Of a DNA stretch of 64,000 nt, positions 9,094 through 48,627 are shown one piece after another. Within the stretch, counting starts at the first letter, position 1. Every line of letters begins with the position of its first letter. This DNA is from an uncultured Clostridium sp. (GTDB lineage Bacteria; Bacillota; Clostridia; TANB77; CAG-508): the NCBI GenBank assembly GCA_946639585.1, contig CAMPBS010000002.1:16994-80993 (forward strand), read 5' to 3'. The notes below the pieces were generated by a model. That model saw only the letters and a program-made list of their open reading frames with translations, searched no databases and was not told the DNA's origin. The translations under genes were made by a program, and so were the position numbers.

Positions 9094-9729
9094 GTGAAAG
9101 AAAAAGAATTAGAAAGATTAACAAAATTAAAAGAAATAGAAAAAGAATTTCATGAAAAAGGAATAAAGTATATATGTGGAATAGATGAAGCGGGTCGTGG
9201 CCCTTTGGCAGGGCCTGTTTGCGTTGCAAGTGTAATAATGCCAGAAAATTCTATGATAGAGGGGGTAAATGATTCAAAAAAAGTATCTGAAAAGAAAAGA
9301 GAAATGTTGTATGACAAAATAATAGAAGAAGCTATTAGCTATTCAGTTGCAATAATCTCAGAAAAAGAAATAGATGAAATAAACATTCTAAATGCAACTA
9401 AAAAGGGGCTCACCCAATCGATAGCAGGTTTAGACGTAAAACCTGAACTGATACTAGTAGATGCATTAGATAAAATTGATACATTAGGCATTCCATATAA
9501 ACCAATAATTAAAGGAGATGCACTTGCTTATTCAATTTCAGCAGCTTCAATTTTAGCTAAGGTTACCAGGGATAGGATAATGAGGCAAATGGATGAAATA
9601 TATCCAGAGTATGGCTTTGCTGGACATAAAGGATATGGAACTGCTAAACATATTGCAGCAATAAAAGAATTTGGACTTTGCGATATACATAGAAGGAGCT
9701 TTACAAAAAATTTTATCAATATTAAATAA
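9094..9729 (+). CDS. rnhB: ribonuclease HII
   Basis: It carries the GIDEAGRGPLAGPV motif. The start is a GTG. Confidence 0.85.
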   Translation: MKEKELERLTKLKEIEKEFHEKGIKYICGIDEAGRGPLAGPVCVASVIMPENSMIEGVNDSKKVSEKKREMLYDKIIEEAISYSVAIISEKEIDEINILNATKKGLTQSIAGLDVKPELILVDALDKIDTLGIPYKPIIKGDALAYSISAASILAKVTRDRIMRQMDEIYPEYGFAGHKGYGTAKHIAAIKEFGLCDIHRRSFTKNFINIK

Positions 9730-40210: not shown

Positions 40211-41374
40211 ATGGCAGGAAAAAAAGATTATTACGAAATATTGGGTGTTAATAAATCTGCAACAGACGATGAGCTAAAAAAAGCATATCGTAAACTTGCA
40301 AAAAAATATCACCCAGATGCTAATCCAGATAATAAAGCAGAAGCGGAAGCAAAATTCAAAGAAGTAAATGAAGCTTATGAAGTGCTTTCTGATTCTCAAA
40401 AAAGAAAAATGTATGACCAATTTGGAACTGCAGACCCATCAGGATTTGGCGGAGGTCAAGGACCATTTGGCCAAGGTGGATATTATTCATATACAGGTGG
40501 TTCTGGATTTGATGGTTTTGGCGACTTTGGAGATTTAGGAGACATCTTTTCTTCATTCTTTGGTGGAGGATTTGGTTCAAGAGCAAGAAAACAAAGTAAT
40601 GGCCCACGCAAGGGTTCAGACATAAATTTACGTATGGATATCACTTTTGAAGAAGCATTTTTAGGAGTTGAAAAAGAAGTAGTTGTATCTAGAAATGAAC
40701 AATGTCCTAATTGCCATGGAACAGGTGCAAAACCAGGAACAAATCCTATGAAATGCCCTGAATGTAATGGAACAGGCCAAGTTCGTCAAGTTCAAAATAC
40801 AATATTAGGCCAAATGCAAACAACAAGAACATGTTCTGCATGTCATGGAACTGGAGAAATAATAAAAGAACCTTGCGAGACTTGTAAAGGCAAAGGAACA
40901 ATAAGAAAACAAGCAAAAATAAAAGTCAAAATTCCAGCTGGAATTGATGATGGCCAAACAGTAGTATTAAGAGGAGAAGGTGAGCCTGGTACTAAAGGTG
41001 GACCAAAAGGTGATTTATACATAACTGTAGGTGTTAAAAAACATAGCATATTCACAAGAAAAGGAAACAATGTGTTGTGTGAAATTCCAATAACAATAAC
41101 ACAAGCAACATTAGGTGCTGAGCTTGAAATTCCAATGGTAGATGGAAGCAAAGAAAAATACAAAATTGCAGAAGCAACACAAACAGGAAGTAAATTTACA
41201 ATAAGAAACAAAGGCTTCAAATATGTAAATTCAAATATGCAAGGAGATTTTGTATTCACAGTAGTAGTACAAACACCAAAAAAACTAACAAAAGAACAAA
41301 GGGACTTATTAACACAATTAGCGAAAACAATGAACGAACAACCACCGGTAAAGAAAAGGGGATTGTTTGGGTAA
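40211..41374 (+). CDS. dnaJ: molecular chaperone DnaJ
   Basis: It has a J domain (HPD), a G/F region and four CxxCxGxG zinc-finger repeats. Confidence 0.95.
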
Positions 41375-41381
41375 AATAAAA

Positions 41382-41412
41382 ACTCTGTATTTAAGCAAAA
41401 TACAGAGTTTTT
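41382..41412 (+). terminator. intrinsic terminator, member of the repeated AAAACTCTGTAT...ATACAGAGTTTTT hairpin family
   Basis: A near-identical hairpin recurs at 47114-47145 and a related one at 44322-44350. Confidence 0.65.
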
Positions 41413-41527
41413 GCTTATTTGAAAAAATTTTTAAATAACTACTTGACAGCGACCCCCAATTTATATATAATGCAAACATGCAAACATCAATTTGCAAAAC
41501 AAATATTTTTAAAAAGGATGTGGATAT

Positions 41528-42304
41528 ATGGAAACAAACAAATTAAAAACAATCTCAAATTTATTTGAAGGAAAAGAAATTAGGAGTGTGTGGGATTCAG
41601 AAAAAGAGGAATATTATTTTAGCGTTGTAGATGTAATAAGTGCTTTAACGGACAGTAATAATCCAAGACATTATTGGGCAGTTTTAAAATCTAGGTTAAA
41701 AATAGAGGGAAGTGAAGTGGTCACAAATTGTGACCAGTTGAAAATGTTAGCTCCAGATGGGAAAATAAGATTAAGAGATGCAATGATTACCAAAGACATT
41801 TTAAGATTAATTGAATCAGTTCCTAGTCCCAAAGCAGAGCCATTTAAATTATGGTTAGCACAAATGGGAAGTGAAAGGATTGACGAAATATTTGATCCAG
41901 AAAAAGCTATAAAAAGAGCAATAGATTATTACAGAAATAGAGGGTATTCAGATGACTGGATTGAAAGAAGATTAAAAGGAATATTAGATAGAAATAAATT
42001 AACAGATGTATGGAAAGAAAATGGAATTAAAGAGAATTACGAATTTGCAGTTTTAACAAATGAGATTTACAAAACCTGGTCTGGAATGAAAGCATCAGAG
42101 TATAAGGCTTTTAAAGGAATAAGAAAAGAATCTTTAAGAGATAATATGTCAGATATAGAAGTTGCACTTACAGATTTAGGCGAAATAGCTACAAGAGAGT
42201 TAGCTAAAAAGCACAAACCACAAGGCTTAAAAGAAAATAAAAAGATAGCAAAAGAAGGTGGGGAAGTGGCTAAAACTGCAAGAAATGATTTAGAAAAAAA
42301 TTAG
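41528..42304 (+). CDS. Bro-N domain protein (phage antirepressor / DinD-like)
   Basis: It has a Bro-N-like N-terminal region (SVWDSEKEEYYFSVVDVISAL...FKLWLAQMG). Confidence 0.6.
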   Translation: METNKLKTISNLFEGKEIRSVWDSEKEEYYFSVVDVISALTDSNNPRHYWAVLKSRLKIEGSEVVTNCDQLKMLAPDGKIRLRDAMITKDILRLIESVPSPKAEPFKLWLAQMGSERIDEIFDPEKAIKRAIDYYRNRGYSDDWIERRLKGILDRNKLTDVWKENGIKENYEFAVLTNEIYKTWSGMKASEYKAFKGIRKESLRDNMSDIEVALTDLGEIATRELAKKHKPQGLKENKKIAKEGGEVAKTARNDLEKN

Positions 42305-42464
42305 GAGAAACAGTTATAAGTAAAGAAAACGCATTAAATTATAAATATTCAGATAACAATAAATTAAACAAAGAAAACCAAAAGACTATAAAAAAAGCAG
42401 AAAAAAGGAAAGAGATTAAGTAAAAAAATACAGATGTTGAAGAAATCTTATATTCTATTTTATT

Positions 42465-42692
42465 TTATTTTTTCTTTGGATATGGTTTTATTTCATCGGT
42501 TAAACCTAAAATATAATCAGTAGATGTTTTATAAAATGAGGCTAGTTTTATTAAATGGTCAATTTGAATTGTATTTTTTTCATTTTCGATTTGAGAATAA
42601 CTATTTTGTTGAATTCCTAAAAACTTTGCTATTTCAGCTTGTTTTATATCATTATCTTCTCTAAGTTCTTTAATTCTTAACATCGCACTCAC
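42465..42692 (-). CDS. XRE-family HTH transcriptional regulator (Cro/CI-type)
   Basis: The HTH region is QAEIAKFLGIQQNSYSQIENEK. Confidence 0.8.
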   Translation of the reverse strand: MSAMLRIKELREDNDIKQAEIAKFLGIQQNSYSQIENEKNTIQIDHLIKLASFYKTSTDYILGLTDEIKPYPKKK

Positions 42693-42816
42693 CTCAAAAA
42701 TAATTCTATAATATCTTTGAAAATGATATTGACAATTATCTTTGATAATGATATAAAAGAATTATCTTTACTAAAGATAATTGCAAAATTAGAACTAATA
42801 AAAAGGGGGACGAAAG

Positions 42817-44311
42817 ATGAAGAAAGAAGAAAAAAGAAACAAAGGAATTACGCTTATAGCATTAATAATCACAATTATAGTATTATTAATTTTGGCTCGG
42901 AATAACAATAAATGCACTAACAGGAAGTGATTCAGCACCTGCCAAAGCAAATGAAGCAGAGCAAAAAAATGATATAGGTTCAGCAAAAGACCAAATCAGC
43001 TTAACAGCAATAAATGCCAAAACTGATGCATATGATACAGCATATGTAGGAAATGGAGTATCAAGTTCAGAAGCAGCAACAACAATAGGACAAGCAGTAA
43101 TAGATGCTGTATTACCAATGAATGGAACAAATACGGGAAAGGCTTCAATATCAGTAGTGCAAGAAGAAAATGCAGGAGTAAAAGGAAATGCACTAATTAC
43201 AATATCAACAAGAGATTTTGAAATAGAAGGAAAAATAACTTTGCAAGATGGGATATTAACATGGGGAGAAATAGAAGATAATGTTCCTAGAATAAAAGGA
43301 ATTCCAACAAGTTTAATATTAAAATCAGGAGAAAAGAAAGACTTTAATGCAACTTTAAAAGGAATAACAGGAACAATAAATTGGAAAGTAGAAGAAGGTA
43401 GTGCTAAATTTATATTAGCAGATGAAAGCAAAGCAACAGAAACAACAGGAGAAAATGTAAAATTAGAAATATTAGATATAGCAAATAATAATGAAACTGT
43501 AATAATAACAGCAAAAGTAGAAGACAAATGCACAGCAACTTGCGAAATAACAGTAGAAAAAATCCTAAGAGCAAAAGATGTTTTAATTCCAAATCCATCT
43601 GGAACAACCGAAGCAGAAAAAAGTCCTTATGTATATTACACAATGAATGGACAAACAGAACCAACATTATGTAGGGTGCTGTATAATGAAGGAACTCCAG
43701 AAGATAACGGATATGGAATACAAATAATAACTGTCGGTACTGTAGGAAGTGTGGCATTAGGATTAGACGATGAAAATGTTGATGGAACATATTTGGCAAA
43801 AGTAAAAAAATCATATAATAATTCAGTTGCAAATTTAAATAAAAAAGCTTATGATCTTAGAAATTCTAATTTATCAGATTATGCTAGATGTGTTGGATGC
43901 TATCCAATGGGTATTCCTATTATTAATCCAAATGAGGATACTACAGGTAATATAACATTATCTGGTTCAAATGCTAGTATAACCGATTTAAAAATGCCTG
44001 ATGAAAACTATGAATATGATATTTCAAGAATGAATTCACTTGGAATTGCTGGTGCAGGAAATACATATTGGTTTGCATCTAGATATTGTAAAAATGATGG
44101 TAGTAGTGGAAATCAAATAGGTTTATGGTTTGGTTCATCAGTGGCGTTAAATGAAGGAAATGGTCTAGGTCGCATTAATGTTGGATATTATGTTAATTGT
44201 TATAGTATAACTTTGTATTTTAGACCAATATTTTATATAAATCCTAATATAAAAATAGATAGCGGCTCAGGAACATCAGCAGACCCGTACATACTAAAAG
44301 CAGGAAATTAA
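42817..44311 (+). pseudogene. pilin-like N-terminal segment fused to a large secreted domain, interrupted by a +1 frameshift near 42898
   Basis: The ATG at 42817 encodes MKKEEKRNKGITLIALIITIIVLLILA and then hits a stop. Shifting frame continues GITINALTGS... into the long ORF 43118-44311. The N-terminus is paralogous to the gene at 8480. Confidence 0.55.
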
Positions 44312-44427
44312 ATAAAATCAAACTCTGTATTATTTCAATACGGAGTTTTAATTTGTACAAATCTCTTGCTACTCACAGCAACTTATGATACAATTCAAAA
44401 TGAAAAAACAAAAGCGGGGGATTACAA

Positions 44428-45183
44428 ATGAGTGCAAGGAAAAGTTACAAAAGTAGCAAAAAAATGAGCAAAGAACAAATAATAACATCAATTATTTTAT
44501 TTATAATAGTTGTTGCGTTTAACTATTTTTATGAGATAATGAGTAAATCACATGAAAGTGAAGCAAACTCAAATATCTTTGGTAAAACATCATATTCAAA
44601 TTTAGTTGATGTACCAGATTATTCAGGCGAAATATGCGTAATGTTAAATGATAACAAGCCATACTTCAAAGAAGAAGAGTATACCACAAAAGCATTTGAA
44701 AACTATAGCGAACTAGACGCTTTAGGAAGATGTGGAGTAGCTTATGCAAATATCTGTAAAGAAACAATGCCACCAAAAGGTGATGAAAGAGGAGACATCA
44801 GCTCAGTTCGTCCAACAGGATGGAAACAAACTAAATGTAATGGGGAATATTTATATAATAGATGCCATTTAATTGCTTATTGTCTTTCTGATGAAGATGC
44901 TAATAAACAAAATTTAATAACTGGAACAAGATATTTTAATACAGAAGGAATGTTGCCAATAGAAAAGCTTGTTTTAGAATATATGAACAATAATAAAGAT
45001 AATCATGTGTTATACAGAGTAACGCCGGTTTTTAAGGACAAGAATCTTTTAGCAAGTGGAGTAGAGATGGAAGCTTATTCAGTGGAAGACAATGGAAAAC
45101 TATCTTTCAATGTATTTGTTTATAATGTTCAACCAGGAGCAAACTTAAATTATGCAACAGGAGAATTAATCAAAAACAATTGA
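44428..45183 (+). CDS. EndA-family membrane-anchored DNA-entry/non-specific nuclease
   Basis: An N-terminal TM anchor is followed by motifs TGWKQ, NRCHLIAY, VLYRVTPVF and LSFNVFVYNVQPGANLNYATGEL. These parallel pneumococcal EndA (PGWHQ, [40 protein letters not shown]). Confidence 0.7.
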   Translation: MSARKSYKSSKKMSKEQIITSIILFIIVVAFNYFYEIMSKSHESEANSNIFGKTSYSNLVDVPDYSGEICVMLNDNKPYFKEEEYTTKAFENYSELDALGRCGVAYANICKETMPPKGDERGDISSVRPTGWKQTKCNGEYLYNRCHLIAYCLSDEDANKQNLITGTRYFNTEGMLPIEKLVLEYMNNNKDNHVLYRVTPVFKDKNLLASGVEMEAYSVEDNGKLSFNVFVYNVQPGANLNYATGELIKNN

Positions 45184-45288
45184 CAAATTATGTAAAAGTA
45201 TATATAATCACTCTATATTTAAATCTTATTGCTATATTTCAATAGTAAAATTTCCCAAAAACAAATTTAAATAGGAGAGTGATTTTTA

Positions 45289-45978
45289 TTGAATTTAGAT
45301 ATATTCAATGATTTAGTTAATGATGTAAAAAACAGCAATGAAATTCAAAATCTTATAAAAGAAGTAAAAAAATATTTAGAAAACAATATAATAAAGAATG
45401 ATGTAAAGGAGGAAATAACATTGGTTAATCCTACTTATGATAGTGAAAGAATAATCACAAAATATAGAGATGAAATGCTAACAAAGAGGTTAGAGATTTT
45501 AAACAACTATGCCCAAAATACTAAATATAAAGGAGAAATGTACTACATCTATAGTAAAAATTCTGAAAATGAAAACAATTATAATCTTTGCATTTGTGAA
45601 GAAGATAAAAGCCATATCGTTATAGAAAAAAGCCAAGAAGAACTACCTTCAGGTGCAATAGTAGGTAGTGTCTTGAGAAAAAATAATGATAGATTTATTA
45701 TAGATGAAAAAGCAACTAAAACTATTTCTGAAAAATTAGATAACATGAAATCTCAATTATTAGAAGAACAAAGAGAATTTTTAGCTAGTCAAAGAATAGA
45801 AGGACATATGTATGAGATGGCTGAAAAAAGTGAAGATAGAGTATTGCTATTCGATATAACAGCAGGAAACGATGAAGGCTTTGAAGAAATAGATTTTCCT
45901 TTGGAATTACTAAATGAAAGCAAAGAGGGAGAGTTATTTGTTTTTGAAGATGGAGAATATATAAAAGTTGACGATTAG
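45289..45978 (+). CDS. hypothetical protein (possible nuclease partner/immunity protein), TTG start
   Basis: An AGGAGAG RBS precedes the start, the ORF lies immediately downstream of the nuclease, and the protein is acidic. Confidence 0.4.
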   Translation: MNLDIFNDLVNDVKNSNEIQNLIKEVKKYLENNIIKNDVKEEITLVNPTYDSERIITKYRDEMLTKRLEILNNYAQNTKYKGEMYYIYSKNSENENNYNLCICEEDKSHIVIEKSQEELPSGAIVGSVLRKNNDRFIIDEKATKTISEKLDNMKSQLLEEQREFLASQRIEGHMYEMAEKSEDRVLLFDITAGNDEGFEEIDFPLELLNESKEGELFVFEDGEYIKVDD

Positions 45979-46022
45979 AAAATATTATGTTAATATGTAA
46001 TTAGTTTTAATTATAAAAGCTT

Positions 46023-46096
46023 GCGAACGTAGCCAAATTGGGAAGGCAACTGCTAGGAGTAGTAGAGATGAGAAGGTTCGAATCCTTCCGTTCGCA
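46023..46096 (+). tRNA. tRNA-like sequence with a defective anticodon arm (probable pseudo-tRNA or integration scar)
   Basis: It has an acceptor stem (GCGAACG/CGTTCGC), a canonical T-arm (GAAGG-TTCGAAT-CCTTC) and a D-arm. The anticodon stem (CTGCT/AGTAG) closes only a 6 nt loop. A terminator hairpin follows at 46101-46130. Confidence 0.4.
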
Positions 46097-46278
46097 TAAA
46101 AATAGAGACTTTGTGTCTCTATTTTTTTATTCTATTATTTTTGTGTTTTAAAAAATATAAAAAATACTTGACAGTCAATATAAATCTATATATAATACAA
46201 ACAAGAATTTGAATACCAATATATATAAATGGAAAATAATGGATGCAAAAATACAATTAAAAGAAAGGAAAACTTAAA

Positions 46279-47115
46279 ATGGATGAAAAAAAGTTAATTA
46301 ATATTACAGAGGAAAATTTTGAAAGTATAAAACATATGGATGAAGATGGAATTGAATTTTGGTATGGAAGAGAATTGATGAAGGTATTAGATTATTCAAG
46401 TTGGGATAAATTTAAAAAAATTATAAAAAAAGCAATGATAGCGTGCGAAAATAGCCAAGTATCAATAAAGCAATGTTTTTCCCAATTGGGAAAAACATCA
46501 AAAATGCCTAATGGTGGAGAAAAGTATGTTGAAGATTTTGATTATAAATTAAATAGATATGCATGTTATTTAGTTGCTCAAAATGGAAGTTCAAAGAAAA
46601 AAACTATTGCACTTGCTCAAACTTATTTTGCAGTACAAACAAGAAAACAGGAATTGACAAGAAAAGAATATGAACAACTAAGTGAAGATGAAAAGAGATT
46701 ATATACAAGAAAGAATGTAAGAGATAAAAATAAATATTTATTTGATACAGCAAAAATAGCAGGTGTACGAAATTATGGGAAATTTAATAATTATGGTTAT
46801 AGAGGATTATACAATGGTGAAACAGCAAAAGATATTGCAAATAGAAAAGGTATATCAGAAAAAGAAGATATTTTAGATTACATGAGTAGTACAGAATTAG
46901 CTGCAAACCTATTTAGAATTACTCAAACAGACGAGGTTCTTAAAAATAAGAATATAAATAATGAAGATGAGGCTTGCAATACTCATCATAAAGTAGGACA
47001 AGCAGTTAGGCAAACTATAAAAAGAATTGGTGGTACAATGCCAGAAGATTTACCAACACCAGCCAAAAGTACAAAACAAATTGAAAAAGAGAAACAAAAG
47101 AAATTAAAAGCATAA
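46279..47115 (+). CDS. DNA-damage-inducible protein D (DinD)-like, Bro-N family
   Basis: It has a DinD-like pattern (FWYGRELMKVLDY...RYACYLVAQNG...IALAQTYFA). Confidence 0.6.
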   Translation: MDEKKLINITEENFESIKHMDEDGIEFWYGRELMKVLDYSSWDKFKKIIKKAMIACENSQVSIKQCFSQLGKTSKMPNGGEKYVEDFDYKLNRYACYLVAQNGSSKKKTIALAQTYFAVQTRKQELTRKEYEQLSEDEKRLYTRKNVRDKNKYLFDTAKIAGVRNYGKFNNYGYRGLYNGETAKDIANRKGISEKEDILDYMSSTELAANLFRITQTDEVLKNKNINNEDEACNTHHKVGQAVRQTIKRIGGTMPEDLPTPAKSTKQIEKEKQKKLKA

Positions 47116-47267
47116 AAATAAAAACTCTGTATATAAAAAATACAGAGTTTTTGCATATAAAGAAAAATTTTTCAAAAGCCTCTTGACATCGAACATAATT
47201 TCATATATAATATAAACACACAAACAATAATTCGTAAAACAAATATTTTAAAAGGATGTGATTGTAT

Positions 47268-47579
47268 ATGAGAAAAGTAAATGGAAAAAGAAAAACAAAA
47301 TTAAATGTAAAAACAATATTGTTAATAGTTTTAGCTATAATATCAATTAGTTTAATAACATCTGCAAACAAGTCATATTCAAAAGTAGAGATACAATACA
47401 AAACAGAGTATGCTAGTTCAGGAGATACATTGTGGTCAATAGCGGAGCGTGAAAGTGAAAACAACAATTATTATAAAGATAAAGATGTAAGAGAAATAAT
47501 CTATGATTTAAAGAAAATAAATAATCTTTCAAACTCAAATTTGGCAGAAGGACAAGAAATAAAGATACCAAAGATTTAA
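47268..47579 (+). CDS. LysM-domain membrane protein, YneA-like (candidate SOS cell-division inhibitor)
   Basis: It is about 103 aa with an N-terminal TM helix and a C-terminal LysM domain (YASSGDTLWSIAE...LAEGQEIKIP). Confidence 0.55.
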   Translation: MRKVNGKRKTKLNVKTILLIVLAIISISLITSANKSYSKVEIQYKTEYASSGDTLWSIAERESENNNYYKDKDVREIIYDLKKINNLSNSNLAEGQEIKIPKI

Positions 47580-47628
47580 TAAAAAACTAGTTTTAGGTTA
47601 AACTAATCCCAAGGAATGGGAGGCAAAA

Positions 47629-48627
47629 ATGTTTAAACCTAAAACTATTTTTTTTGAAAAAGAAATTGTAAATTATAAGCTTGGAAAAGAGCTAATGGAA
47701 AAATACAAAGAAATTCCTAAAATAGAAATAGCTAATCACAACAACATAGAAGAACTGCGAAAAAGTGAGAACAAAGAGTTCCTAAATCTAAAAAACAACT
47801 TAATAATAGGAGTTAGGAAAACACACAAATTTGTAGAAAATCATAAAGTATCAGATTATTTGGTGCCATACACATCTTCAGGTTGTAGTGCTGCATGTAT
47901 GTATTGCTATTTGGTTTGCAATTATAACAAATGTAGCTATTTAAGACTATTTGTAAACAGAGAGCAAATGTTAGATAAAATAATAAAAACTTCAGAAAAA
48001 TCCGAAAGAGAATTAACCTTTGAAATTGGTAGTAATAGTGATTTAATTTTAGAAAATACTATAACAGGAAACTTGCCATGGACAATAGAAAATTTCAAAA
48101 ATACTAAAAAAGGAATGCTTACATTTCCTACAAAATTTGATATGGTAGATGATATTCTAAATGTTGCCCATCAAGGAAAAGTAATTACAAGAATGAGTGT
48201 AAACCCAGATGAAATAATAAAACAAGTAGAGCTTGGTACATCAAGGCTAAAAGGTAGAATAGAAGCGATAAACAAGCTAAAAGAAGCGGGGTACAAAGTT
48301 GGAATTCTTATTGCACCTGTAATAATGGTAGACAACTGGAAAGAACTTTATTCAGAGCTTATAAAACAATTAGAAAGAAATCTGAGTGAACAAGTAAAAA
48401 AAGAATTATTCTTTGAAGTGATTTTTATGACATACAGCTATGTGCACACAAAAATAAATGAAGAAGCATTTCCCAATGCCATCAATTTATACAATAAAGA
48501 ACAAATGACAGGGAGAGGTAGAGGAAAATATATGTACAAAAATGAACTTAGAAAAGATGGAGAAGTGTTTATGCGCGAGCAACTTGGAAAGTGTTTTCCT
48601 AATAATAAAATCTTATATGTAGTGTGA
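47629..48627 (+). CDS. splB: spore photoproduct lyase (radical SAM)
   Basis: It has a CxxxCxxC motif (CSAACMYC) and the size and pattern of SplB. Confidence 0.7.
   Translation: MFKPKTIFFEKEIVNYKLGKELMEKYKEIPKIEIANHNNIEELRKSENKEFLNLKNNLIIGVRKTHKFVENHKVSDYLVPYTSSGCSAACMYCYLVCNYNKCSYLRLFVNREQMLDKIIKTSEKSERELTFEIGSNSDLILENTITGNLPWTIENFKNTKKGMLTFPTKFDMVDDILNVAHQGKVITRMSVNPDEIIKQVELGTSRLKGRIEAINKLKEAGYKVGILIAPVIMVDNWKELYSELIKQLERNLSEQVKKELFFEVIFMTYSYVHTKINEEAFPNAINLYNKEQMTGRGRGKYMYKNELRKDGEVFMREQLGKCFPNNKILYVV

Follow-up and report, generated by a model that had tools for sequence, protein, structure and literature searches.

Between dnaJ and the spore photoproduct lyase gene splB of an uncultured Clostridium sp. 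(contig CAMPBS010000002.1; the window analysed here is the whole stretch of 64,000 nucleotides, nt), genes of unrelated families stand behind what looks like one and the same unit of hairpin terminator, consensus promoter and leader. The question that this locus raises is how such a unit came to be repeated, and whether the segment that it borders is a decayed integrated element, as a reading made from the sequence alone (the sequence-only reading) had proposed among other options, or something else. Our answer, to which we give a probability of roughly 0.7, is that the interval from dnaJ to a small LysM gene similar to yneA and to splB is a recombination hot spot for accessory and defence genes that vary between strains. 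The repeated module is the host's native spacer between dnaJ and yneA, of which copies lie at the cassette edges, and the whole is a real and fairly ordinary piece of genome variation.

The gene order of the region is hrcA-grpE-dnaK-dnaJ, then the variable segment, the LysM gene, splB and cysS, and the G+C content of the window is 28%. The window is identical in sequence to a 121 kb metagenome contig (ENA ERZ12302818 NODE_224), and its closest relatives in a species-level genome collection are metagenome-assembled genomes named uncultured "Clostridia bacterium" and "Clostridium sp. CAG", from guts and rumens. The fetched loci and contigs that were compared with the window are referred to by L-numbers (L010, L011, L091 and so on).

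The repeated module and its single-copy form in relatives

The flanking genes and the parts of the module lie in the window as follows.

40211..41374, + strand: dnaJ (Pfam DnaJ/DnaJ_C), the conserved left flank of the proposed hot spot
41375..41527, + strand: module copy 1, with hairpin H1 (41377-41413), A/T tract, promoter, boxes, and the leader with ribosome-binding site (RBS) feeding the Bro-N gene
41443-41448 and 41466-41471, + strand: -35 and -10 hexamers of the copy 1 promoter, from the promoter scan
41480-41495: box-2-like LexA-type site kept in copy 1 (GCAAACATCAATTTGC), box 1 of this copy being destroyed (CGACCCCCAATTT)
44320..44348, + strand: hairpin H2, with the stem of H1 and H3 and a different loop, the right border of the Bro-N/XRE/pilin block
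47114..47267, + strand: module copy 2, with hairpin H3 (47120-47152), A/T tract, promoter (47183-47211), two boxes, and leader with RBS
47190-47202 and 47221-47234: LexA-type box 1 (CGAACATAATTTC) and box 2 (CAAACAATAATTCG) of copy 2
47268..47579, + strand: yneA-like gene, 103 aa, with a LysM domain (PF01476, 29.9 bits) and an N-terminal membrane segment (hydrophobic residues 17-32)
47629..48627, + strand: splB (PF20903, 242 bits), the conserved right flank

Two copies of the module (~140-180 nt; 41374-41552 and 47114-47292), each composed of the dnaJ terminator hairpin, an A/T tract, a perfect TTGACA-N17-TATAAT promoter and a leader with its RBS, flank an insert of 5.6 kb. The repeat search returned them as a long direct repeat (41374-41513 against 47114-47253, 140 nt, 74% identity, ungapped), together with a three-member promoter family at 41434, 46159 and 47174 and three copies of AAACTCTGTAT(T/A). 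The insert is itself subdivided by partial copies, namely the third hairpin (H2) and a weaker copy of the promoter at 46168-46196. The sequence-only reading had seen nearly the same module in front of three genes, which is correct for Bro-N and the LysM gene; in front of the DinD gene only the promoter core is shared, the terminator found upstream belongs to a tRNA-like gene, and the leader is a different sequence. The conserved leader, a 25-mer, occurs exactly at 47236-47260 only, before the LysM gene, and the Bro-N copy has two inserted bases.

Perfect TTGACA-N17-TATAAT sites start at 41443, 45180, 46168 and 47183, which is four within 6.4 kb, and the whole window has six of them against 0.07 expected; the one at 45180 had not been listed in the sequence-only reading. 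Outside the hexamers the Bro-N and LysM promoters have an identity of 0.65 and the DinD promoter 0.47, with 0.25-0.40 for other promoter pairs; of the latter, the pairs with 48645 or 54391 are the only clearly unrelated ones. The three hairpin terminators all exist, the second and third lying 2-7 nt from where they had first been placed. Their folding energies (H1, H2 and H3 in this order) are -16.8, -13.1 and -14.7 kcal/mol, with z-scores against shuffled sequences of -6.7, -5.4 and -7.7, and each has the features of an intrinsic terminator (a stable stem-loop and a T run 3' of a gene), the T tail of H2 being the weakest (TTTTAATTT). In the window the 11-mer AAACTCTGTAT has six matches with at most one mismatch, both arms counted, all at the three hairpins, and one further, unrelated one-mismatch occurrence was seen.

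What this module represents can be read from a related species. In L011, dnaJ is followed by a spacer of 153 nt, the LysM gene and splB, and BLAST aligns its positions 9487-9666 (from the dnaJ stop to ~25 nt inside the LysM open reading frame, ORF) both to window 41374-41552 and to the window from 47115 onward. With one L011 spacer corresponding to each of the two window copies, the module is identified as the native intergenic region from dnaJ to LysM, which here stands on either side of the insert. In the three-way alignment, the part upstream of the end of the -35 is identical at 73/74 positions between L011 and copy 1 and at 60/75 between L011 and copy 2, and in the downstream half the better match is copy 2 (72/82, against 57/82 for copy 1). 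Four-fold degenerate sites of the flanking genes are 66-77% identical between the window species and L011, which places the poorly matching halves at or near the neutral level; at the protein level, DnaJ is 95-97% identical in L010 and L011. The well-matching halves would be those that keep their original jobs, that is, terminating dnaJ (left half of copy 1) and driving the LysM gene (right half of copy 2).

Direct adjacency of dnaJ, the yneA-like gene and splB, which is the minimal or empty site, was found in L011 and L195-197 (one species), in L049 and in L206 (132 nt). The gene order at the dnaJ-splB junction is thus not universal, and the view of the segment as an accessory mosaic, for which empty sites in related genomes had been named as the check, is borne out. 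Intermediate arrangements occur as well: L198 has only the tRNA-like gene added between dnaJ and yneA, L012 has the tRNA-like gene without yneA, and L204 has 149 nt from dnaJ to yneA, but another gene in the place of splB. L010 carries a second, decayed hairpin-plus-promoter copy downstream of its LysM gene, which indicates that duplication of the module happened more than once. As for what is inserted at the dnaJ site, L010 has a RelA_SpoT-domain protein and a 1310-aa SF1 helicase/PLD protein, L013 has MazF, a pilin-like DUF285 protein and RelB/YoeB, and L032 has a DUF1287 protein, a cytidine/dCMP deaminase-family protein and two ORFs without a Pfam match.

In its simplest state, the one found in related species, the site consists of one unit of ~150 nt, with the dnaJ terminator, the A/T tract, a sigma-A promoter with two LexA-type operators and a short yneA-like leader. 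In the window, the left copy would keep the dnaJ terminator and drive Bro-N, its first operator having been destroyed, the right copy would terminate dinD and drive yneA, and the hairpin at 44320 and the promoter at 46168 would be partial copies that mark the borders of sub-blocks. The re-use of a promoter and leader by unrelated genes, earlier called unusual, finds its explanation in a native intergenic region duplicated at the borders of insertions, and a designed re-use is not supported.

The similarity of the modules could instead reflect shared function, with promoters that converged under SOS control or a leader that holds a common post-transcriptional element, the latter having been suggested by the sequence-only reading. 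The likeness of the DinD promoter, which lies mainly in the hexamers, the A/T tract and a box-2-like AAAC-N4-ATTT, would agree with this, as would DinD homologues in L010 and L036 that have AAAC-N4-ATTC or AAAC-N4-GTTT in their promoters, and a 71% identical Bro-N homologue in the viral contig L212, where AGAACAAATGTTTG stands upstream and is directly followed by a -10-like ATATAAT. However, the similarity between the Bro-N and LysM modules spans terminator, spacer and leader, and both align to the one unit of L011, which shows descent. Neither leader is predicted to fold beyond its shuffles (z = -0.4 and +0.5), an Rfam search of the leader matched no family, and the leader sequence is not kept in the more distant relatives L013, L032, L049 and L058. 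We therefore regard shared function as improbable; on these comparisons, the leader similarity between the two window copies is inherited and gives no evidence for a control element.

Block variation between strains and the proposed origin of the repeats

Among contigs that encode an identical DnaJ there are at least five haplotypes, the window type included. In L094, window 41413-44312 (Bro-N, XRE and pilin genes) is missing and an H2-type hairpin stands right after dnaJ, where the two flanking alignments overlap by 38 nt inside the hairpin. In L091, L093 and L097-99 a different block of 430 nt takes the place of Bro-N/XRE/pilin, bordered by 17 nt repeated from the hairpin arm (in L091, from the arm and the start of the loop), and L091 and L093 are also without window 46133-47163 (dinD, its promoter and its hairpin). 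L092 has dinD and lacks Bro-N, and the nuclease, DUF3006 and tRNA-like genes are retained in all variants. These combinations indicate that the blocks assort independently, and such presence/absence variants within one species are what the earlier suggestion of cassette shuffling would lead one to expect. The breakpoints of the blocks fall at hairpin or promoter copies, and in three of the conspecific haplotypes divergence sets in exactly at the 3' edge of the hairpin. In L091 the LysM promoter and the first 40 codons are a diverged allele and the remainder is identical, so recombination tracts end inside the LysM gene too. Each block would be transcribed on its own, from its own promoter through one or more genes to its own terminator, and strains would gain and lose the blocks independently of one another.

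The 430-nt block itself (L091 11200-11631), which is not in the window, has a promoter, a structured leader, a very hydrophobic peptide of 36 aa (MLKIFAFLLMGLIISITINLALLCILYIQWVNKHIK) and its own terminator, and it resembles a type I toxin module.

A decayed remnant of one integrated element (a prophage, a satellite, or an integrative and conjugative element), with the long repeats as attL and attR, would also give direct repeats around an insert. Phages and satellites often carry Bro-N, DinD, XRE and nuclease genes, as with the DinD gene beside the integrase of the Streptococcus satellite Javan622, and the viral homologue of Bro-N in L212 lies beside serine recombinases. Nevertheless, domain searches found no integrase, recombinase, transposase, excisionase, replication or structural gene among the island ORFs, and there is no recombinase or transposase next to the island. 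Searches of phage and plasmid collections gave no match to the whole island, only to single genes (dinD, nuclease, Bro-N), each with at most 11% of the query. Moreover, the border repeats are no short att-like cores; they are the host's own intergenic unit, 140-180 nt long and 74% identical, made of a host terminator and promoter, and the sub-blocks that they delimit assort independently, with three genes present in every variant. An integrated element, as the sequence-only reading had it, thus seems to us very improbable.

A further rival makes the terminator hairpin a sequence-specific recombination site, at which promoter-bearing cassettes would be moved by a dedicated enzyme encoded elsewhere (integron-like or hairpin-targeting), the duplicated hairpins being junction products. 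All three block borders have one stem (AAACTCTGTAT/ATACAGAGTTT) with differing loops, the stems are identical despite flanks that are ~80% identical or unrelated, and the overlap inside the L094 hairpin, the 17-nt repeat around the L091 block and the divergence of three haplotypes at the hairpin edge all place junctions at this structure. Set against this are the lack of a recombinase or transposase in or beside the island, the confinement of the hairpin to this locus within the window, and the left border of the DinD block, which is not of this hairpin type; besides, a terminator is the last constrained element of a core gene, and variable DNA is expected to begin there. The blocks do not form an integron array either, as there is no integrase and each block has its own consensus promoter. 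We hold this rival to be unlikely.

A dispersed hairpin repeat was considered and rejected after scans of the window, the fetched loci, and metagenome and viral collections. In the metagenome scan, L116 and L183 alone were recognisably from the locus, the other matches being checked only by locus proteins and G+C; these others have mostly 3-nt loops and mostly 32-37% G+C (range 23-51%) and are without the locus genes. The viral collection gave two matches.

Little weight likewise goes to a dedicated, SOS-wired cassette platform, in which the hairpin would be a specific recombination site and insertions would re-create both the hairpin and a copy of the LexA-controlled promoter. If this were true, acquired defence-type genes would be insulated and automatically placed under DNA-damage control, in an integron-like manner without a linked integrase, and the non-canonical tRNA-like RNA described below could belong to the platform or to the control of yneA.

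Under the hot-spot reading that we prefer, the repeats would have arisen by a single-crossover insertion of DNA carrying a homologous copy of the spacer, since such a crossover necessarily puts chimeric direct repeats to the left and right of the insert, which agrees with the three-way alignment. Alternatively, homology may have been one-sided, with dnaJ as its anchor and the other joint formed by a short homology in the hairpin stem. At present the repeats probably mediate the loss and exchange of blocks. The import of a dnaJ 3' end from an L011-like donor was also considered and was rejected, as no recombination tract is visible inside dnaJ.

Several points speak against this reading. The direction of events is ambiguous, because the chimeric pattern would follow from a deletion between repeats in the L011 lineage just as well as from an insertion here, and drift of the unconstrained halves would fit it too. 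The left half of copy 1, identical to that of another species at 73/74 positions, is more conserved than selection on a terminator easily explains, and the identity of the hairpin stems within flanks that are ~80% identical or unrelated is not predicted by duplication and drift; for these two reasons a small probability is kept on hairpin-specific recombination. No recombination intermediate was found, and a search for other locations or alternative junctions of the exact Bro-N and DinD proteins found them solely at this locus. Finally, every dataset used consists of metagenome assemblies.

The yneA-like gene and its LexA-type boxes

The yneA-like protein scores 51.1 bits with the YneA model NF010723, below its cut-off of 60, and in the lineages examined for position its gene sits between dnaJ (or the island) and splB, not divergent from lexA. 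We infer that it is an SOS-induced inhibitor of cell division. The yneA-like promoters that were recovered have box 1 between the -35 and the -10, with the consensus CGAACAWAAATTC, and box 2 at 8-9 nt past the -10 (CGAAC or CAAAC, N4, then ATTC, ATTT or GTTT), and at least 10 lineages have the two boxes at these places of their yneA-like promoters. The CGAAC element that had been noticed in the window promoter is therefore one of two LexA-type boxes conserved across lineages. A distant yneA-like homologue in another genomic context (L201) has GAACTTATGTTT between the hexamers, the yneA-like promoter of L049 has a better box (CGAACAGTGTTCG), and the single recA promoter available, from the relative L076, has AAACAAAAGTTC just after the -10.

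The LexA operator of B. subtilis is GAAC-N4-GTTC. For clostridia, LexA boxes are given as GAACnnnnGTTT/GTTC/nTTC, and searches have used GAACnnnnGTTT, GAACnnnnGTTC and GAACnnnnnTTC (PMC4234289); in C. thermocellum the YneA-like LysM gene Clo1313_1450 is a conserved LexA target and is described as bound by LexA (PMC8457756). Box 1 and box 2 of the window each agree with CGAAC-N4-GTTCG at 8/10 positions, and box 1 fits the motif GAACnnnnnTTC of the former study.

A position weight matrix built from the yneA boxes found again the sites on which it was trained, and also a recA promoter and sites ahead of a small accessory gene. With true sites scoring 14-23, the Bro-N copy has 6.8 for box 1 and 16.3 for box 2, and the box-2-like site of DinD has 12.8; the Bro-N copy is homologous to the training sites and hence gives no independent support. 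Two results stand in the way of extending SOS control to the whole segment, namely that the window's own boxes each deviate from GAAC-N4-GTTC, and that the window has 13 sites of the loose pattern RAAC-N4-RTTY where 17 are expected, which is no enrichment, so that this pattern was not counted in favour of the DinD and Bro-N promoters. Canonical Cheo boxes gave only two matches in 1.28 Mb of related loci, too few for a regulon. SOS control of the LysM gene is thus a well-supported prediction; for Bro-N it is possible and for dinD uncertain, being weakly suggested for both owing to the imperfect boxes and the unenriched pattern. LexA would be expected to repress the promoters of the module.

Boxes of the type GAAC-N4-ATTC/GTTT were also found right after a conserved terminator hairpin at other sites, in related species (L021 4326, L017 3330, L034 3465, L078 4610, L039 3131, L035 2087). 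In L039 that hairpin ends a tRNA-Tyr gene, a similar hairpin does so in L031, and no tRNA was seen at the other sites. The boxes precede a small accessory gene (N-terminus M..K.NKEKGN.GLG.AIA), which adjoins DinD homologues in L017, its homologue doing likewise in L036. These sites look like a second variable spot, possibly under SOS control. The tandem dinD genes behind tRNA-Tyr in L031 were considered as the same phenomenon and rejected, being an ordinary 1.5 kb tandem duplication (L031 3490-5600); what is doubled there is the 3' end of tRNA-Tyr with its terminator, followed by a leader and a dinD homologue, and both dinD copies are disrupted.

Downstream of the yneA-like gene, a 22-nt inverted repeat at window 47581-47654 (91% complementary, arms 30 nt apart) covers the LysM stop, the RBS of splB and the splB start, and is a possible terminator or attenuator at this gene boundary.

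Cargo, the tRNA-like gene and known systems

Between the two module copies the window carries the following features.

41528..42304, + strand: Bro-N gene, 258 aa (PF02498, 29.4 bits; PDLC04920, 374 bits; phrog_15286)
42465..42683, - strand: XRE-family helix-turn-helix regulator, 72 aa as called (HTH_3, 52.7 bits), also called in L001 and L090, divergent from the pilin-like gene
42709..42783, no strand: three operator-like 20-nt repeats, from repeat families that include the palindrome AATTATCTTT-ACT-AAAGATAATT at 42760-42782
42817..44311, + strand: pilin-like gene with a prepilin-type N-terminus, from three-frame translation, with one extra C at 42898
44428..45183, + strand: membrane-anchored non-specific nuclease (Endonuclea_NS_2, PF13930, 72.5 bits), with a weaker promoter at 44366-44394
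45289..45978, + strand: DUF3006 protein, partner of the nuclease (PF11213, 36.6 bits), with its own perfect promoter at 45180-45208
46022..46097, + strand: tRNA-like gene (ARAGORN; Rfam tRNA, 48 bits), with a promoter-like site at 45968-45996 and a terminator at 46098-46126
46133..47163, + strand: DinD block, with promoter (46168-46196), dinD (46279-47115) and hairpin H3

Profile matches confirm the gene calls made before (Bro-N, XRE, the EndA-family nuclease with its partner, DinD and LysM). The DinD protein (278 aa) passes the NCBIfam equivalog NF008573 with 331 bits against a cut-off of 242; the Bro-N protein reaches 22.9 bits with this model and is not a DinD member, and the likeness between the two proteins is remote (BLASTP E = 0.02). 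Both match the PADLOC candidate defence family PDC-S13, with 374 bits for Bro-N and 333 bits for DinD, and a literature search on PDC-S13 found nothing matching. No validated defence system was matched by the island cargo, PDC-S13 being a candidate family, and toxin-antitoxin genes are present in relatives. Overall the cargo, with two PDC-S13 candidates, a nuclease with its partner and an XRE-controlled pilin-like gene, resembles that of defence and accessory islands.

The palindrome noted between the XRE and pilin-like genes is present, 3 nt away from its first placement, and it is one part of the three 20-nt repeats, which overlap a near-consensus promoter of the pilin-like gene (42729-42757). 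The frameshift in this gene, reported already in the sequence-only reading, is the one extra C: the +1 site GCT-C-GGA (window 42895-42901) is identical in contigs from five different samples and occurs in every contig with the gene, so it is not a sequencing error. An L013 relative of the gene is intact at this point. At the site, an Ala codon is followed by the Arg codon CGG, expected to be rare at 28% G+C, and GGA is in the +1 frame. The gene would be either a fixed pseudogene or subject to programmed frameshifting. The loop motifs of the tRNA-like gene (GGAG, GAGU) do not pair with GCU-C-GGA of the pilin site in the window, and a functional link between this loop and the frameshift is speculative.

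The tRNA-like gene had been taken for a scar; it is an intact, conserved gene with a promoter-like site (9/12 in the window, clearer in L010, L012, L198 and L208) and its own terminator. Homologues were found at L010 4398-4473, L012 7967-8039, L013 7052-7128, L198 6772-6848 and L208 6720-6793, and in five lineages the yneA-like promoter follows closely behind the gene, one of them L208, where the neighbouring gene is not dnaJ. In a five-sequence alignment (L208 left out), 10/21 pairs show compensatory changes, with covariation in the acceptor, anticodon and T stems, and the arms resemble those of the lineage's tRNA-Gln. The anticodon loop is abnormal: it has 8-9 nt, or 7 nt if a G-U pair is taken to close it, and GAGUA/GAGCA is conserved in it. 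When the 7-nt loop is read, 4/6 copies are without U33 and 0/6 have a purine at 37, unlike a canonical tRNA, and an alternative ARAGORN reading of the window copy has both. CCA is encoded in 2/6 copies, and by species ARAGORN calls Pro(AGG), Leu(GAG) or an undetermined type. A literature search for bacterial tRNA-like genes with enlarged anticodon loops found nothing matching.

Elsewhere in the window, a glmS ribozyme match (83 bits, 17353-17506, - strand) lies upstream of a 612-aa ORF (15414-17252), as expected for glmS.

Hot spots between core genes that take up defence and accessory islands are known from the "minimal mobile elements" of Neisseria and from the pangenome defence hot spots of E. 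coli and Pseudomonas. The present locus has in common with them conserved flanks, cargo that varies by strain and species, with many toxin-antitoxin, nuclease and candidate defence genes, an absence of own mobility genes, and an exchange presumed to run via homologous recombination of the flanks. Unlike in those cases, a native terminator and SOS-type promoter unit is duplicated here at the block borders with incoming genes behind the copies, the breakpoints are at short repeated hairpins, and the locus is known from metagenome assemblies only. With integrons it shares blocks bordered by an imperfect inverted repeat and combined variously at one site; integrons, however, have IntI, attI and promoterless cassettes ending in attC, whereas here there is no integrase, the blocks have their own promoters, and the hairpin is an intrinsic terminator confined to the locus.

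The yneA-like gene agrees with the LexA-repressed yneA of B. subtilis and C. thermocellum in coding for a small protein with an N-terminal membrane segment and LysM, and in having GAAC-type boxes that overlap the promoter. It differs in lying between dnaJ and splB, and not divergent from lexA as in Bacillus and C. thermocellum, in its 51 bits against a cut-off of 60, in its imperfect boxes (GAAC-N4-TTTC, AAAC-N4-ATTC), and in that its function and its induction are predicted ones. As in E. coli DinD and PDC-S13, the NF008573 cut-off is passed, both the DinD and Bro-N proteins match PDC-S13 strongly, and the DinD promoter resembles an SOS-type promoter; the differences are that the two proteins here are only remotely alike, that LexA control of them is weakly supported, and that the defence role is a candidate annotation.

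These findings leave current concepts unchanged. Two more unusual side results are the yneA-linked, tRNA-shaped RNA with its abnormal anticodon loop and the frameshift that all contigs with the pilin-like gene share. For the uncultured gut Clostridia, the locus illustrates neatly and on a small scale how accessory and candidate defence genes move in and out between two core genes, with breakpoints resolved to a terminator hairpin and a promoter. It shows an SOS-type promoter of the host copied ahead of incoming genes, and it places a yneA-like gene, predicted to encode a division inhibitor and preceded by LexA-type boxes, in a lineage without cultured members.

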